Source: an uncultured Tenacibaculum sp.
Lineage (GTDB): Bacteria; Bacteroidota; Bacteroidia; Flavobacteriales; Flavobacteriaceae
Assembly: GCA_947501615.1 (NCBI GenBank)
Contig: CANMWK010000014.1
Location: forward strand, 52,120 to 116,119
Reading direction: 5' to 3'
Length of the DNA: 64,000 nucleotides
Shown here: positions 812 through 53,996 of the stretch, piece after piece
Layout: the number at the start of each line of letters is the position of its first letter
Position numbering within the stretch: position 1 is the stretch's first letter
Program-made: the position numbers and the translations under genes
The notes under the pieces: model-generated
What the model saw: only the letters and a program-made list of their open reading frames with translations
Told to the model about the DNA's origin: nothing
Databases searched by the model: none

Positions 812-1258
812 GTGAAATATTCTGTTCTTATTGTTCTGTTTTATATTTCGTTTAGTAGTTTCTCTCAACAAATAGATATAAAATCTCTTAAGTGGAAAAA
901 TAGAGTTATACTAATCATATCAGATACCAAAGACAATACGCTTTATAGAGAACAAATACATGAGTATATTAATCTGCCTGATGCTTTTAATGACCGAAAA
1001 TTAAAAATAATTGACATTCAACAAAACCGCTACAGAACAATATCGTATTTTAAAGATAAGACTGTAATAGGAACTTGGATAAGTAATACTTCATTATATA
1101 CAAAATATTCATCTAAACAAAGTAATTTCAAAGTAGTACTTCTTGGCCTTGATGGAGGTACTAAAAAAATCATACGAGATCAAGTTTTTTCTAGAACTCT
1201 ACTTTTTACTTTGATTGATGGAATGCCAATGCGAAAAGCGGAATTACGAAAAAACTAG
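812..1258 (+). CDS. DUF4174 domain-containing secreted protein
   Basis: Track ORF 749..1258 overlaps the upstream gene. An in-frame GTG at 812 gives MKYSVLIVLFYISFSSFSQQ, a signal peptide. WKNRVILI...LLGLDGGTK...IDGMPMR fits the DUF4174 pattern. Confidence 0.6.
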   Translation: MKYSVLIVLFYISFSSFSQQIDIKSLKWKNRVILIISDTKDNTLYREQIHEYINLPDAFNDRKLKIIDIQQNRYRTISYFKDKTVIGTWISNTSLYTKYSSKQSNFKVVLLGLDGGTKKIIRDQVFSRTLLFTLIDGMPMRKAELRKN

Positions 1259-1270
1259 TTATGTTAAGGT

Positions 1271-2146
1271 ATGAAACCAATTAAACAAATTAAATTCCAA
1301 AATAAAGAGGCTAACGATTACTATTTTGATTTTGTCAGTTTAGAAGATACCTTAAAGAAAAAACCTAAAGATCATAGTCAATTCGAGCATCATAAAATTC
1401 TATTTTATGTAATTGTTATTATTACGGATGGGATCGGTAACCACAATATCAATTATACTGATTACACCTATAAAAAAGGAACAGTTTTCACATTAAGAAA
1501 GAATAACACCCATAAGTTCTACAAAACAACTGCCAAAGGAAACTTTCTTGTTTTTACTGAAGATTTTATTATCAAATATTCTGATAATTTCGAAACCTTG
1601 AAATTATTCCAGCTTTTTAATGAAATGTTGAGTTCTCCTAAAATTCAGCTAAATGAGGATGATTTCCAAGAAGTACATCTATTAATTCATCAAATAAACA
1701 AAGAGTTTTTAGAACAAAACAATTCTTATTCTAATGCGATTATTAGAAGTTTAGTGCAAGTAATTATACTTAAGCTATTAAAAATTAAATCGAAAGAAAA
1801 TAAAAATTTTGAAAATAAAAACTATCATTTACAATTTATAAAACTCCAAGAACTCATTGAAAAAGAATGTTTTGAAAGCAAAAAAGTTACTTTCTATGCT
1901 ACAAAAATGGGAGTTAGCACCAAAACACTAAATAATATTACACAAAGTATTATTGGTAAACCTGCTAAATCATTTATAGACGAGATTTTAATTTTACAAA
2001 TTAAAAGGTTATTAATTAACTCTCAACTTTCTTTAACCGAAATCGCTTACCTTGTCGGTTTCGATTCACCTACTAATTTTTTTAAATACTTTAGAAAACG
2101 AACTCAACTTTCTCCTAAAGAATTTAAAAATCAAAACAAACACTAA
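1271..2146 (+). CDS. AraC family transcriptional regulator
   Basis: C-terminal dual HTH region (KVTFYATKMGVSTKTLNNITQ ... LSLTEIAYLVGFDSPTNFFKYFRKRTQLSPKEFK) is typical of AraC/XylS. The N-terminal region is a cupin-like ligand domain. Confidence 0.8.
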   Translation: MKPIKQIKFQNKEANDYYFDFVSLEDTLKKKPKDHSQFEHHKILFYVIVIITDGIGNHNINYTDYTYKKGTVFTLRKNNTHKFYKTTAKGNFLVFTEDFIIKYSDNFETLKLFQLFNEMLSSPKIQLNEDDFQEVHLLIHQINKEFLEQNNSYSNAIIRSLVQVIILKLLKIKSKENKNFENKNYHLQFIKLQELIEKECFESKKVTFYATKMGVSTKTLNNITQSIIGKPAKSFIDEILILQIKRLLINSQLSLTEIAYLVGFDSPTNFFKYFRKRTQLSPKEFKNQNKH

Positions 2147-4200: not shown

Positions 4201-4683
4201 GATCTGATTTAAATCATTTCACATTAAGATAAATAATAAAAACACACAGAAGTTTAACAGAAAATTTAAGGGTCTAAAAAGAAATGTTAAAATATAATTC
4301 TGAAAATCAATTACTACAAAAATTGAAAATGAGTTATTTTAATAAAAACATCTTTTTTAGACCTTTTACTTTGGGGTATAAATCATATCAATTCAAAGTG
4401 ATAATTTTAATTAACTCTAATAACTCTTCTTTTTTTAAACTTCCTTCATCGTTTAAAAACTTATCTGATTCAACTAATTCTACTATCATCTTCATATTAG
4501 CGCCTTTAAACTTCAACTTCTTTATTAAAACTGAATTTGTGATCATAACTAATAATTTTTAAGGGATTATTGTAACACAACTTAAAAATAATAATTAACC
4601 TAAAAAAATGATAACATTATAGATGAATGAACCTAAAGCGAAGATCATAGTTATTCTTGTAATGTTTAAGAGCAACAAAAAAA

Positions 4684-18298: not shown

Positions 18299-18301
18299 TT
18301 G

Positions 18302-18696
18302 TGGAGACGCCGAGAATCGAACTCGGGTCCAAACAAGTAGCTCAAGAGCTTTCTACATACTTAGTTTTTATTTAATTTTCGACTAAAAGCTGACTAAAAA
18401 CGATCCACTTTTAGCTTATCTTCTTTAATTTCGAAAACCTATCGAAGTTCTAAATTTTCTATGTTTACTTTTATGATGCCCAAAAGTGAAACGCCGTAAA
18501 CCAGGGCTTTCCGTGGACATTTAGCTTGCACACCTTGTGTGCCTAGGCTTGAATCTTACTATAATTCAGATTATTAAGCAGCTAAAGCGTAATTATTTTC
18601 GCCATTTAAATTGTTGAAATAAGTTTAACGAGCATCATTTCAGTCCTCGGTATGCTTACAATTTTACTAATCTTGCTGTCAAAACCAGTCGTCCCC
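18302..18696 (-). ncRNA. ssrA: tmRNA (transfer-messenger RNA)
   Basis: The minus strand reads 5'-GGGGACGACTGGTTTTGACAGC...GGACCCGAGTTCGATTCTCGGCGTCTCCA-3'. The acceptor stem GGGGACG/CGTCTCC carries the G3:U alanine identity pair. A T-arm GAGTTCGATTCTC is present. The tag reading frame at 18574-18603 is GGC GAA AAT AAT TAC GCT TTA GCT GCT TAA, giving GENNYALAA. CCA is not fully encoded. Confidence 0.93.
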
Positions 18697-47003: not shown

Positions 47004-47840
47004 TTAGTATAAGAAACGTAATGCGGTAATGTCATTAGGACCAAACTCTCCATCATCACTTGCACTAAAACAAGCAATCATAACAGAAGTAGGATCGTAA
47101 CCTGCAGGAGTACCTGGAACTGCATTAGCACCTACACCAGCAGTACCTTCATTTGTGTTTTGTCCACAACTTTGTCTTGTTTGATAATCTGTGTGACGGA
47201 AACCTACAGAGTGACCTATCTCATGAGTAATCACATGCTCATTTACATTAGTTGAGAAACCTTCTAATCCGAAAATTTGAACAAATTTAAAAGGATTTCC
47301 GTTAGTAGGAAAACCAGCAGATCCACCAGACCCACTCTCATTTGGATTGTTGTATACAACCATATCCTGTGGTTGGTAATTTGTACCAAATGTTAAATTA
47401 AATCTAATTGTTAAATTTAATCTATTGTAGTTGTTAACTGCCCATTGTAAAGCTGTTTGAGCTTTACTCGACAATCCGAAACCTCCACCACCAGTGAATC
47501 CGATGATGTTAATTACAGTGTTTTGAGCTACTAAATTATTAGTGTAGTAGTTTCTTCCTGATAACTCTTGTAAATTAGGCAAACTGTTTATTTCTGCTTC
47601 AGTCATATGAATGTCACCTTCAATTTGATACATAGGAGTAAACTCACCGTTTGGTAATACATAGTCTACTTTTTTAGCACCGTCAGGGTTCATATCAAAA
47701 TTTGCTAATTTAGCAACGATTTCAGTAGAGACTCCATTTTCAGCCACAGCTTCAGGCTGATTGTTGTCTTCTGATTGACATGCGAAAAAACTCGCACCTA
47801 CTAATAATAATGCAACTCGGGAGAATTTCATTTTTTTCAT
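47004..47840 (-). CDS. M57-like (HEIGH) zinc metalloprotease lipoprotein
   Basis: Lipobox GASFFAC. Zinc motif HVITHEIGHSVGFRHTD. Confidence 0.75.
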   Translation of the reverse strand: MKKMKFSRVALLLVGASFFACQSEDNNQPEAVAENGVSTEIVAKLANFDMNPDGAKKVDYVLPNGEFTPMYQIEGDIHMTEAEINSLPNLQELSGRNYYTNNLVAQNTVINIIGFTGGGGFGLSSKAQTALQWAVNNYNRLNLTIRFNLTFGTNYQPQDMVVYNNPNESGSGGSAGFPTNGNPFKFVQIFGLEGFSTNVNEHVITHEIGHSVGFRHTDYQTRQSCGQNTNEGTAGVGANAVPGTPAGYDPTSVMIACFSASDDGEFGPNDITALRFLY

Positions 47841-47950
47841 CTTTAAATGATTTTTTAATGGTTATTAATTAAATTTTTAACGAAATTATGACTTTTTATT
47901 AATGGTTTTAACATTTATTAAGAATTTTAACAACATAAATATTACAAATC

Positions 47951-47986
47951 ATAAAAAAGACAAATGTTACAAAAATTAAACATTTG
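47951..47986 (-). terminator. strand-specific terminator-like hairpin between the repeat region and the M57 gene
   Basis: CAAATGTT (47961-47968) pairs with AACATTTG (47979-47986). On the minus strand the hairpin is followed by TCTTTTTTAT. There is no T-run on the plus strand. Confidence 0.4.
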
Positions 47987-48365
47987 CAACTAAAAAAAAA
48001 CAATTTGTTAATTTTAAGTAAAATATAAGTTAAGTTCTATAGTAAATAGAAAAACATGTTAAAGCAAATTAGTAATCTAAAAAATAGTAATTAATGTAAT
48101 TTCTATGATATAAATCATGATGAAAATCAAATGTTTGTCAAGTTGAACATTATCAAATTCAAAAAATACTTTAAATGAAGATAGCTTATGAAGTAAGTCG
48201 AGACTATATTATTATTAGTAAAAACCACTTCTCGACTGCACTCTAAGTTACATTTACTAGTGGGATTATTTTTAAGTGTTTTATTTTTAATGCATTATGT
48301 TTTTCCTTAAGTCGAACTCACATTAATTAGATTTTGGGGATCATTAATACTATTATAATAAAAAA

Positions 48366-49905
48366 GACTTCAGTATAAACTGAAGTCCTTTTTGTCTAAC
48401 CAAACTTAGTATAAAAACTAACTACTACTATTTTTAACTACTTATTAATTATAAGTCTAGGGATTATAAACTATAATTGGGGATTATTATAATGTCTTTC
48501 TAATGAACTTATTTAAACAACTATGTTACTGTTCATTATTTAAGACACTATTTTTTTCAATTAGTCACAATATTTCATAAAAAAAAGACTTCAGTATAAA
48601 CTGAAGTCCTTTTTGTCTAACCAAACTTAGTATAAAAACTAACTACTACTATTTTTAACTACTTATTAATTATAAGTCTAGGGATTATAAACTATAATTG
48701 GGGATTATTATAATATCTTTCTAATGAACTTTTTTAAACAACTATGTTGCTGTTCATTATTTAAGACACATTTTTTTTTAATTAGTCACAATACTTCATA
48801 AAAAAAGACTTCAATATAGAACTGAAGCCCTTTTTGTCTAACCAAACTTAGTATAAAAACTAACTACTACTATTTTTAACTACTTATTAATTATAAGTCT
48901 AGGGATTATAAACTATAATTGAGGATTATTATAATGTCTTATGAACGTTTTAAACAACTATGTTGCTGTTCATTATTTAAGACACATTTTTTTTTAATTA
49001 GTCACAATATTTCATAAAAAAAGACTTCAATATAAAACTGAAGTCCTTTTTGTCTAACCAAACTTAGTATAAAAACTAACTACTACTATTTTTAACTATT
49101 TATATTTTTATAGTTCAGGGATTATAAACTATAATTGAGGATTACTATAATGTCTTATGAACGTTTTAAAAACTATGTTGCTATTCATTATTTAAGACAC
49201 TAATTTTTTCAATTAGTCACAATATTTTATAAAAAAAGACTTCAATATAAACTGAAGTCCTTTTTGTCTAACCAAACTTAGTATAAAAACTAACTACTAC
49301 TATTTTTAACTATTTATATATTTTATAGTTCAGGGATTATAAACTATAACTGAGGATTATTATAATGTCTTTCTAATGAACGTTTTTAAATAACTATATT
49401 ACTATTCATTATTTAAGACACTAATTTTTTCAACTAGTCACAATATTTCATAAAAAAAGACTTCAATATAAAACTGAAGTCCTTTTTGTCTAACCAAACT
49501 TAGTATAAAAACTAACTACTACTATTTTTAACTATTTATAAACTACTTTTTAAAGCAATTATTTTGGGATTATAAATATAATTTTGGGAATTATTATTGT
49601 CTTAATGAACGTTTTAATTACAACAGTTGTACTGTTACGTTATATAAGACACATAAAATTTATAGTGGTCACAATATTTCATAAAAAAAGACTTCAATAT
49701 AAAACTGAAGTCTTTTTTATCTAACCAAACTTTAGTATAAAAACTAACTACTACTATTTTTAATTATTTATAAACTACTTTTAAAAGCGGTTATTTTGGG
49801 ATTATAAATATAATTTTGGGAATTATTATATGTCTTAATGAACGTTTTAATTACAACAGTTGTACTGCTACGTTATATAAGACACATAAAATTTATAGTG
49901 GTCAC
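48366..49905. repeat. tandem array of seven 215-231 bp non-coding units, each with a terminator-type hairpin
   Basis: The hairpin GACTTCA(G/A)T..ACTGAAGTC starts at 48366, 48587, 48807, 49023, 49238, 49459 and 49690, giving periods of 221, 220, 216, 215, 221 and 231. Each hairpin is preceded by A7-8 and followed by C?T5. It is then followed by the near-invariant block GTCTAACCAAACTTAGTATAAAAACTAACTACTACTATTTTTAA. No ORF of 60 aa or more occurs in any frame between 47841 and 49937. Confidence 0.9.
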
Positions 49906-49906
49906 T

Positions 49907-49939
49907 AAAAAAAGAAAAACTCAATAATTATTGAGTTTT
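49907..49939 (-). terminator. terminator of the tpiA-prmA-clpS operon
   Basis: AAAACTCAATAATTATTGAGTTTT (49916-49939) is a perfect 24-nt palindrome overlapping the stop codon of the last ORF. A T-rich tract follows on the minus strand. Confidence 0.55.
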
Positions 49940-50219
49940 AATGAAGATATTTTCTTAAAATTATTCTATGTTCTGGAATAGACTTATCATAATTCAGAGC
50001 TAACAACTCTAGTATTTCAGGAGGGTGAACACCTATTGATTTTTTATTTAAAAATTTAGAGACATATAAATTGTACCCTTCTAATGTTTTTTCAAAAATT
50101 AAAAAATGTTGACTATTAAGTTCTGTGTATGCTATTGGGTTACCGGAAAATGACTCGGACTGATCTTTAAAAAAATCGGAAAAGTCATAATACTTGAATA
50201 CATTATCCATATTAAACAA
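49938..50219 (-). CDS. hypothetical protein
   Basis: 93-aa ORF overlapping the clpS stop by 8 nt. No family recognised. Confidence 0.45.
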   Translation of the reverse strand: MFNMDNVFKYYDFSDFFKDQSESFSGNPIAYTELNSQHFLIFEKTLEGYNLYVSKFLNKKSIGVHPPEILELLALNYDKSIPEHRIILRKYLH

Positions 50220-52919: not shown

Positions 52920-53996
52920 TTAATTCAATTTTACTCTTGGGTCTAACCAAACATAAATTACATCAACAATAATATTAATAACAATAAAGATACTTGAAAT
53001 TATCAATACACTTCCCATAATTACGGGTAAATCTAAAGTATCTAAAGCATTAACAATTTCTTTACCTAAACCATTCCAATTAAAAATATACTCTATAAAT
53101 ACAGCGCCAGTTAACATAGAGGCAAACCATCCTGAAATAGCAGTCACTACAGGGTTTAATGAGTTTTTTAATGCATGTTTTTTTATTACCTTATATGTAG
53201 ACAATCCTTTAGCTCTAGCTGTTCTTATATAATCTTGATTTAAAGTTTCTAGTAACGAATTTCTCATTAATTGCGTAACTACTGCTAAAGGCCTTATTCC
53301 TAAAACCACTGCGGGTAACAGTAAATTTTTCCATTGTATGTAAACTCCTTCTCCAAAATCATCTACTTTATATAAACTTCCTGTCATTTCTAACCCTGTA
53401 TACTCATGAAGTACAAAGCCAAAAAGCCAGGCGACCAAAATAGCAGAAAAGAATGACGGTAAACTCATCCCCAACGTACTTATTACCGCAATCAATTTGT
53501 CAATTAACTTATTTTTGAAAATAGCAGAGAAAACTCCAAGAATAATCCCCAAAATTATAGCCAAAACAATTGCAAAAACAGCTAATACAATAGTATTCGG
53601 AAGTGTTTCTCGAATAACATTAGATACTTGTTTTCCATTCTTCTGAAAAGACTCTCTTAAATATGGATACTTTATAGCTATTTCATAATTAAATACAGAA
53701 AATAAGAGTGTTGCATTATATTTCCCAGAAAGTAAACTTGTATAATTCGTATCATTTTTACTGTGAAAAGATAATGGAGATAAATCATTTAAATAATACA
53801 AATACTGCGTAGTAACAGATTCATTGAATCCATATTTTTTCCTAATCACTTCTAACTGCTCACTATCTTCTCTTTGTCCCATCAACATTCTTGCTGGATC
53901 CCCAGGTAATACATTAAAAAGGAAAAAGACTACAGTTATAACACCAAAAAGTGTCGTAAAACCATATAATATTTTAGTTGTTATATACTGAAACAT
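52920..53996 (-). CDS. ABC transporter permease (DppB/OppB-like)
   Basis: N-terminal LPGDPARMLMG and the EAA-like loop YIRTARAKGLS...KHALKN. It has 6 TM segments. Confidence 0.8.
   Translation of the reverse strand: MFQYITTKILYGFTTLFGVITVVFFLFNVLPGDPARMLMGQREDSEQLEVIRKKYGFNESVTTQYLYYLNDLSPLSFHSKNDTNYTSLLSGKYNATLLFSVFNYEIAIKYPYLRESFQKNGKQVSNVIRETLPNTIVLAVFAIVLAIILGIILGVFSAIFKNKLIDKLIAVISTLGMSLPSFFSAILVAWLFGFVLHEYTGLEMTGSLYKVDDFGEGVYIQWKNLLLPAVVLGIRPLAVVTQLMRNSLLETLNQDYIRTARAKGLSTYKVIKKHALKNSLNPVVTAISGWFASMLTGAVFIEYIFNWNGLGKEIVNALDTLDLPVIMGSVLIISSIFIVINIIVDVIYVWLDPRVKLN

Follow-up and report, generated by a model that had tools for sequence, protein, structure and literature searches.

What kind of element is repeated seven times in a gap devoid of larger open reading frames (ORFs) behind the clpS operon of an uncultured Tenacibaculum sp.? 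The gap lies in a stretch of 64,000 nucleotides (contig CANMWK010000014.1 of assembly GCA_947501615.1, positions 52,120 to 116,119; hereafter the window, with positions counted from its first letter). An initial annotation, made from the letters alone, had put forward a multi-copy small-RNA (sRNA) gene array of no described family as its leading hypothesis, and this idea fits all the comparative evidence assembled here. We consider it reasonably probable that the array represents seven paralogous (sibling) sRNA genes on the minus strand, which belong to an undescribed family of trans-acting sRNAs kept at this spot in Tenacibaculum and Polaribacter.

Tandem Repeats Finder reported one tandem array at 48360-49771, with a period of 221 bp, 6.4 copies, 90% matches and a score of 2010. 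Alignment resolved seven head-to-tail units of ~220 bp each spanning 48360-49912, the seventh being slightly longer and reaching to 49912. No ORF of at least 60 amino acids (aa) is present between 47841 and 49937, i.e. between the gene of an M57 metallopeptidase and a small gene at 49938-50219. Thus, the seven-unit array, its hairpin coordinates and the ORF-free gap, as first described, were reproduced by repeat detection, alignment and ORF scan. The proposed division into subtypes 1-3, 4-5 and 6-7 is likewise borne out by pairwise identities of 94-96% within units 1-3, 94% for units 4-5 and 96% for units 6-7, as compared to 80-93% between the groups, and the subtype-specific small palindromes ahead of GGGATTATAAA are present in the sequence. 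A 29-nt part of the block that is invariant between the units occurs six times without mismatch in the window versus 0.00 expected occurrences, unit 7 carrying a 1-nt insertion in this block. No further unit copies were detected by nhmmer elsewhere in the window, and seven is the highest copy number among the loci examined. Degenerate relics had also been suggested at 48190-48360; a hidden Markov model built from the seven units gave no hit at E <= 10 there, and the short motifs AATAATCCC and TCGACTTA are visible by eye. The plus-strand 25-aa ORF (MNLFKQL...) is not conserved across units or species, as anticipated for the short ORFs of the units, and was dropped as a candidate gene. A metagenome contig identical to the window (L001, ENA ERZ6863697; 4990-5659) stops within the array after 2.5 units; the repeat therefore breaks short-read metagenome assemblies.

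Each unit consists, in minus-strand direction, of a two-block promoter-like box, a body, the invariant core, a terminator hairpin and a T-run, as follows:

49683-49905, minus strand: unit 7, the first putative gene after the clpS operon; box 49881-49905, core 49719-49756, hairpin 49690-49712, T-run 49683-49689; predicted RNA of ~190 nt
49452-49672, minus strand: unit 6; box 49648-49672, core 49488-49524, hairpin 49459-49481, T-run 49452-49458
49231-49441, minus strand: unit 5; box 49417-49441, core 49266-49302, hairpin 49238-49259, T-run 49231-49237
49016-49220, minus strand: unit 4; box 49196-49220, core 49052-49088, hairpin 49023-49045, T-run 49016-49022
48800-49005, minus strand: unit 3; box 48981-49005, core 48836-48872, hairpin 48807-48829, T-run 48800-48806
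48579-48789, minus strand: unit 2; box 48765-48789, core 48615-48651, hairpin 48587-48608, T-run 48579-48586
48360-48568, minus strand: unit 1, the last putative gene; box GTGAC-N15-GTGTC at 48544-48568, body with 5' stem UAAUGAAC/GUUCAUUA, AAUCCCCA loop and second AAUCCC, core TAGTAGTAGTTAGTTTTTATACTAAGTTTGGTTAGAC at 48394-48430, hairpin 48366-48387, T-run 48360-48365

Homologues were searched with a 23-mer from the invariant block, using one genome per species. The 73 DNA stretches that matched stem nearly all from Tenacibaculum or Polaribacter, two of them being named only Flavobacteriaceae and Bacteroidia. By best similarity the window itself belongs with Tenacibaculum, the M57 protein of L008 showing 92% identity to its own. 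In nearly every locus reaching far enough, the element is located directly downstream of tpiA-prmA-clpS-hyp93 and on the same strand. Most species possess a single copy, the range being 1-7. Metagenome loci were fetched through hyp93. Together with those from genomes, 120 distinct loci extend for 450 nt or more beyond this gene: an ORF-less unit with core is present in 58 and a unit with an ORF in 13 (two of these with decayed core), while 48 carry nothing. A metagenome scan for distant relatives led mainly to the same two genera, with hyp93 identities of 63-78%. Plasmid and phage matches were not obtained, and by sequence comparison the element is not mobile.

A complete unit comprising box, body, core and terminator also exists at a non-syntenic locus of Tenacibaculum sp. 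M341 (L032, 4417-4600, plus strand), where it lies between an HD-domain hydrolase gene and rpmA-rplU; an insulinase-like ORF follows ~1.3 kb downstream. Just upstream of this unit, at ~4310-4375, AATAATCCCCAAT and AATCCCCTAG motifs and a terminator are found without the core.

The invariant block comprises 33-38 nt. At 108 of 122 sites, its 33-nt core, GTAGTAGTTAGTTTTTATACTAAGTTTGGTTAG, is present without a mismatch; the sites come from more than 70 species with TpiA proteins only 60-86% identical to TpiA of the window. Judged from this comparison, the core is under purifying selection. Folded alone, the core of unit 1 is predicted to be essentially unstructured (-2.7 kcal/mol, z = +0.7), so that it is both invariant and potentially accessible, as would suit a conserved seed. 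In core variants the stretch between TTAGT and ACTAA changes (TTTTAT, TTTAT, TTTTA, TTTTTAAA, TTTTTTAAA), both arms being kept, and the number of TAG repeats varies; the piece surviving longest in diverged copies is AAGTTTGGTTAGA. These variants agree with a very small hairpin, after which GUUUGGUUAG lies exposed immediately ahead of the terminator.

The terminator stem covaries. In an alignment of 30 sequences, 98% of the cells of its 10 pairs are paired and all 10 pairs show changes on both sides, a result reached by none of 500 shuffles; slid controls were 17-60% paired. Every unit in the window has its own box and its own terminator with T6-8, and a G+C-containing stem kept by compensatory changes and directly followed by a U-run is what characterizes an intrinsic (Rho-independent) terminator on the minus strand. 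By sequence features, i.e. box, terminator, intergenic position and lack of a conserved ORF, each unit would qualify as an independent non-coding transcription unit.

The body of ~120 nt is more variable and contains small hairpins and CCC loops. The arms of its 5' stem-loop (SL1) vary by species yet stay complementary (AACAGT/ACTGTT, TAATAAC/GTTATTA, AACAAC/GTTGTT) and are often followed by AAGTTCATTG. The body also keeps a GTTCATT box as well as one or two AATCCC motifs, the latter frequently in hairpin loops. A second hairpin (SL2, xxCTTCTC...GAGAAGxx), whose outer pairs covary, is present in about half of the homologues; its counterpart in the window is reduced to three alternative 5-6-bp palindromes, namely those of the three subtypes mentioned above.

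On the minus strand, each unit opens with the two-block box GTGAC-N15-G(t)GTC(a/t)tA. This is the motif written in the initial annotation as '..TAAGACAC...GTCACAATATTTCAT', which reads GTGAC-N15-GTGTCTTA on the minus strand. Of the 122 core sites, 112 are preceded by the box, and the remaining ten are mostly at a locus edge. Its spacing is identical in 109 of the 112 cases, and G20 and A27 are invariant though the search did not require either. It matches seven times in the window, always in the array and on the minus strand, versus 0.08 matches expected, and no TAnnTTTG (sigma-A) box was detected upstream of the units. Promoters of extracytoplasmic function (ECF)-type sigma factors were defined by two conserved blocks with a fixed spacing of ~16-17 nt (-35 ..AAC, -10 ..CGT..). 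The ECF-type SM6 promoters of Flavobacterium psychrophilum, which were mapped through their transcription start sites, read GTAAC-N16-CGTATAA (PMC9723704). The geometry of our box is equal to theirs, while its letters differ (GAC, TGTC). In Polaribacter porphyrae (L029), a box GTGAC-N15-GGGTC is located ~55 nt upstream of a DUF4197 lipoprotein gene (882-1646, plus strand; Pfam E = 1e-76), which may belong to the same regulon. Because the geometry equals that of SM6 promoters and the box precedes this gene as well as an ORF in Polaribacter (see below), we infer that it serves an alternative sigma factor, probably of ECF type, as promoter. Inspection of the mid-size ORFs of the window recognised no sigma or anti-sigma genes.

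Two kinds of exceptions were observed. In L133 and L153, a diverged copy ~40-210 nt after hyp93 has both box halves changed together (GTGGC...GTGCC) and a degraded core (TAGTAGTTGATTTTTTATTATAAGATTGGTTTAAC), being either a gene in decay or one that co-evolved with its sigma factor. Short array members of ~140 bp in L017 (4126-4291) and L053 (430-735) have core and terminator and lack the GTGAC-N15-GTGTC box; these may depend on read-through or another promoter.

In nine Polaribacter genome loci, an ORF of ~65 aa lies between the same box and the same core. It encodes a signal-peptide-like N-terminus, the segment (I/V)VPPPxPPPPPPGLP(I/V)DG, a transmembrane helix and the C-terminus KKI.K(D/N)SSS*. 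The product scores 26.5 bits on NCBIfam PID_CTERM (cut-off 26), and the relatives found in databases carry the name PID-CTERM protein-sorting domain proteins (NCBIfam NF046080, Pfam PF28310), all named ones being from Polaribacter. Hence, the orthologous Polaribacter cassette encodes a member of this family with the same box, core and terminator, whereas the window units differ in having no such ORF, the frame that ends in the core being closed 8 codons upstream. Since the units of other Polaribacter (L029, L046) lack the ORF, the nucleotide sequence of the 3' block is maintained irrespective of its translation; and because box, 3' block and terminator flank the PID-CTERM ORF, the module serves as the 3' end of an mRNA as well. 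Compared in this way, the genes of Tenacibaculum look like an ORF-less, amplified form.

These data bear on the direction of transcription, which the initial annotation had left open, offering an anatomy for either strand. Its remark that the T-tracts are longer on the minus strand holds across 113 distinct homologues: at least five T follow the stem in 93 of them on the minus strand versus 21 on the other, and the minus-strand T-run exceeds its counterpart in 97 and falls short of it in two. The anatomy offered for either strand, in contrast, is not supported. The Polaribacter ORF extends into the core in the orientation of the units and stops at the core's TAG; the two-block box is upstream in the same orientation; and the upstream operon and the downstream M57 gene are both on the minus strand, as the units. 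From these four independent observations we conclude that the units are most likely minus-strand genes. A perfect TAAGTTTG box had also been noted on the minus strand; it is contained in the conserved 3' block, at a distance of 20 nt from the terminator that follows, and was rejected as a -7 box, as the resulting RNA would be ~45 nt and consist of the terminator only, and a -33 partner is lacking.

How might such genes work? Each unit would be transcribed alone from GTGAC-N15-G(t)GTC(a/t)tA by means of an ECF-type sigma factor, and transcription would stop at the hairpin and its U6-8, giving an RNA of about 175-190 nt with a predicted 5' end. The 5' two-thirds of this RNA would vary between paralogues and species and keep the 5' stem-loop, the GUUCAUU box, one or two AAUCCC and the second hairpin. 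Its 3' end would present the invariant, presumably unstructured block UAGUAGUAGUUAGUUUUUAUACUAAGUUUGGUUAGAC directly before the terminator. This block may be the working surface, acting either as an extended seed for pairing with mRNA segments rich in A and C, for example CUAACCAAAC, or as a protein-binding site. Seven copies would raise the dose of the common 3' module and allow for different 5' domains, and one alternative sigma factor could switch all units on together. From the gene neighbourhoods, mRNAs for secreted proteases or envelope proteins are plausible targets, because the arrays adjoin M57, S8 and M28 peptidase genes and because a precedent is given by the sRNA Rfp18 (see below).

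Several observations weigh against this picture. The element appears dispensable in many relatives, because 48 of the 120 hyp93 loci carry none. A search for targets by k-mer complementarity and duplex energies in the 64 kb and the syntenic loci, including the 5' regions of the M57, S8 and M28 genes, revealed complementarity neither above chance nor conserved; scattered hits, for instance an 11-mer in tmRNA and, antisense to the permease gene at 52941, a 12-mer, were treated as chance. RNAalifold found no consensus structure in a MAFFT alignment of the 5' hairpin region, the stem arms being out of register, and covariation of the 5' hairpin is therefore seen by inspection only. The minimum free energies of the bodies have nearly equal z-scores on both strands (-1.49 vs -1.27). 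Finally, the box departs from classic ECF boxes (GAC not AAC, TGTC not CGT), its assignment to a sigma factor reflecting motif geometry only, and it could instead be a direct-repeat binding site for a regulator.

Among known RNAs, no relative of the units was found, in agreement with the view that they match no described family. In Rfam 15, no family reached its gathering score within the array; the matches that passed were tmRNA in the window and tRNA in the loci. The best match of the array was HrrF with 32 bits versus a gathering score of 77, and this hit as well as Thr_leader, both obtained at permissive thresholds, were rejected as sub-threshold and driven by the terminator. A CRISPR array, dismissed already on first inspection, does not apply, the whole unit being repeated with a period of 221 bp and 80-96% identity, whereas CRISPR repeats are identical, comprise 24-48 bp and alternate with unique spacers of about their own size. 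The searched literature contained neither a description of the element nor any such tandem sRNA array for Bacteroidota.

The closest functional analogy is provided by Rfp18, a 97-nt sRNA of F. psychrophilum needed for normal levels of two metalloprotease mRNAs, whose proposed seed, GGUUGG, is part of an extended, U/G-rich and conserved region ahead of the terminator (Guerin et al. 2021, PMC9723704). Like the predicted RNAs of the units, Rfp18 is a free-standing Flavobacteriaceae sRNA; both have a CCC-containing 5' hairpin and a U/G-rich conserved stretch before the terminator, the centre of which in the units, UUUGGUUAG, is identical in the Rfp18 homologues of F. gilvum and F. crassostreae. 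Moreover, Rfp18 is near the secreted metalloprotease genes fpp2-fpp1 and the units are near M57. However, Rfp18 differs in its sigma-A (SM1) promoter, its hppD locus, half the length (the RNA predicted for the units measuring ~180 nt), a single copy and four stem-loops. The only shared sequence is the 9-mer TTTGGTTAG (in two homologues), and local alignments of 7 units with 4 homologues gave z-scores of -0.5 to 1.9 (p 0.06-0.77), i.e. were no better than shuffles. Homology is therefore not statistically supported.

Enterobacteria produce several sRNAs upon envelope stress, namely MicA, RybB and MicL under sigma-E control and CpxQ, which is cut from the 3' untranslated region of cpxP mRNA. The units are similar in a putative promoter whose type suggests an ECF sigma factor, in a cassette that is a gene for a small envelope protein in one genus and a putative RNA-only gene in another and, as for CpxQ, in a conserved RNA element at the 3' end beside the terminator; they differ in belonging to another phylum and in having no sequence relation to these sRNAs. 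Hfq and ProQ are not known from Bacteroidota. Arrays of sibling sRNAs are exemplified by NsiR1 in Nostoc (~12 tandem copies with own promoters), LhrC1-5 in Listeria and Qrr1-5 in Vibrio. With these the units share head-to-tail copies with own putative promoter and terminator, a common, presumed interaction region, a divergent remainder and variable copy number; a relation in sequence or structure does not exist.

Four other explanations have to be considered, and none of them accounts at once for the asymmetry between the strands, for the constancy of the core in copies lacking the ORF and for a box and a terminator in every unit. The first concerns the flanks of the array, which contain the following features:

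49941-50210, minus strand: hyp93 (89-93 aa), which ends the operon and consistently adjoins the cassette on its upstream side
49916-49939, minus strand: terminator of the tpiA-prmA-clpS-hyp93 operon, directly after which the cassette starts in nearly all species
47987-48359, minus strand: spacer between array and M57 gene, with unit-like short motifs and no significant similarity to the unit; it may be a decayed eighth unit
47961-47986, minus strand: terminator-like hairpin followed by T6, read from the sequence, upstream of the M57 promoter region
47004-47840, minus strand: M57 metallopeptidase gene, the downstream neighbour, with its own conserved 5' region

As all flanking genes are on the same strand, the array could be part of one long minus-strand transcript, arising by read-through from the clpS operon or as an M57 leader, in which the repeats act on M57 in cis as attenuators, processing sites or protein platforms. 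Arrays do correlate with M57: among loci with enough flank, an M57 gene is within 1.5 kb of 8 of 11 multi-copy loci versus 2 of 37 single-copy loci (Fisher p = 1.7e-5, uncorrected for phylogeny). The boxless array members of L017 and L053 would also be compatible with a long transcript. However, a box and a strong T6-8 terminator are present separately in every unit of the window, an M57 gene is missing from the vicinity of most of the 37 single-copy loci, and a complete unit resides at the unrelated locus of strain M341. In addition, ~100 nt upstream of the M57 genes are strongly conserved between species (window 47841-47940, minus strand; L007, L008, L017, L022, L025, L026 and others) with the consensus ..TGTTAAAA..TTATAnTTTCGTTAAAAATTnAATTAWWAACCATTAAAAA..ATG, and the further terminator-like hairpin separates M57 from the array. 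We therefore regard a long transcript as unlikely. The TAACCA in the M57 upstream region is partly complementary to the core's UGGUUA, the pairing being too short to call.

Alternatively, the units might be decayed genes of PID-CTERM mini-proteins, i.e. functionless pseudogenes that still have promoter and terminator. Box, 3' block and terminator are indeed the same as around the Polaribacter ORF, and more distant metagenomic relatives (L149, L120) keep the ORF while the core decays, which suggests that the ORF form is old. Yet the ORF-less form occurs in ~58 distinct loci, its core does not vary, its body retains motifs (GTTCATT, AATCCC, CTTCTC hairpin) and its stem changes are compensatory; a remnant of the ORF frame is not detectable, and pseudogenes would not hold 33 nt unchanged while TpiA drops to 60% identity. 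Decay without function thus appears quite improbable.

That the units are sRNA genes on the plus strand, with a promoter in the invariant block (TTAG-N19-TATTTTTA), a body of ~170 nt and the hairpin with C-T5 as terminator, had been considered a coherent architecture at first. Runs are present on both sides of the hairpin, which could terminate both ways; a plus-strand scan called 3 of 7 hairpins terminator-like, and the plus-strand fold of unit 1 also beats shuffles, albeit with z = -2.1 as compared to -3.4 for the full minus-strand RNA. This promoter fails, because the invariant bases lie in its spacer while the -7-like TATTTTTA is an edge that varies between species (TATCTTTA, TATTATTT, TATTGTAT). 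Moreover, the plus-strand tail has two or fewer T in 36 of 113 homologues (many with 1-3 T), the genes would be antisense to the conserved Polaribacter ORF, and the GTGAC-N15-GTGTC box would be left without a role, making this orientation very improbable.

Very little probability also attaches to a repeat acting as DNA, be it in the form of serial binding sites (resembling iterons, or used by a regulator or recombinase) or of a locally expanded mobile miniature element: although GTGAC/GTGTC forms a direct repeat 20 bp apart, as for some dimeric regulators, and copy number varies from 1 to 7 between species, the element has no terminal inverted repeats, no target duplications and no plasmid or phage matches, it is not dispersed, the stem covariation is expected for an RNA or terminator and not for a protein-binding DNA site, and the block is part of an mRNA in Polaribacter. 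In the same vein, the features of miniature inverted-repeat transposable elements or repetitive extragenic palindromic elements are missing, including other copies in the window, and the initial statement that the unit is no known mobile element agrees with one syntenic locus per genome, with one exception. A dif or other recombination site was rejected on argument, as direct repeats would be unstable, the core is non-palindromic and a second locus exists (L032).

Turning to the surroundings, hyp93 (MENVF(K/R)YYEFSDF...YDKSIPEHR..) has 25 invariant columns in 18 sequences, matches no Pfam or NCBIfam family and, in Tenacibaculum as in Polaribacter, invariably closes the tpiA-prmA-clpS operon. 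In L099, a different tandem repeat with units of ~125 bp occupies the cassette position (~0-420 nt after hyp93); each unit ends AACCCACAAC..GTTGCGGGTTCGAAT, resembling the T-arm and acceptor end of a tRNA. Another repeated unit (GTGACCTCCACTGTTGACTCTTC...) is found in L094. A tRNA gene on the opposite strand lies directly downstream of the cassette, or right after hyp93 where the cassette is absent, e.g. in L010 (5521-5594, minus strand), L021 (1044-1117, plus strand) and several metagenome loci. Elsewhere in the window, a transfer-messenger RNA (tmRNA) gene is located at 18299-18696 on the minus strand (Rfam 150 bits), for which ARAGORN gives the tag peptide GENNYALAA.

Returning to the minus-strand sRNA genes, the comparison of the two genera permits a more far-reaching, and tentative, proposal, which we regard as possible rather than probable. 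The invariant 3' block and the terminator could form a regulatory RNA module that is portable and subject to an envelope regulon of ECF type in marine Flavobacteriia. In Polaribacter, it would form the 3' end of the mRNA for the PID-CTERM envelope mini-protein of ~65 aa, from which it is possibly released in a CpxQ-like manner. In Tenacibaculum, the coding part would have been replaced by a non-coding body with CCC loops, and the gene amplified up to sevenfold beside secreted-protease genes. If true, a single orthologous locus would document interconversion of mRNA and free-standing sRNA gene, and the array would be the first sigma-factor-linked one of sibling sRNAs in Bacteroidota.

Post-transcriptional control in Bacteroidota is poorly known: initiation is mostly not led by Shine-Dalgarno sequences, and only a handful of sRNAs have been studied. 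The undescribed RNA family would add to this picture a stretch of 33-38 nt that is the same in both genera and unusually long for an invariant block, and its recognisable non-sigma-A promoter motif could define an alternative-sigma regulon. The natural variation in copy number from 0 to 7, together with an orthologous protein-coding version, offers directly testable material. Tenacibaculum includes important fish pathogens, in which secreted proteases are virulence candidates. The position of the Tenacibaculum arrays next to M57, S8 and M28 peptidase genes may thus lend the putative sRNAs practical interest as well.

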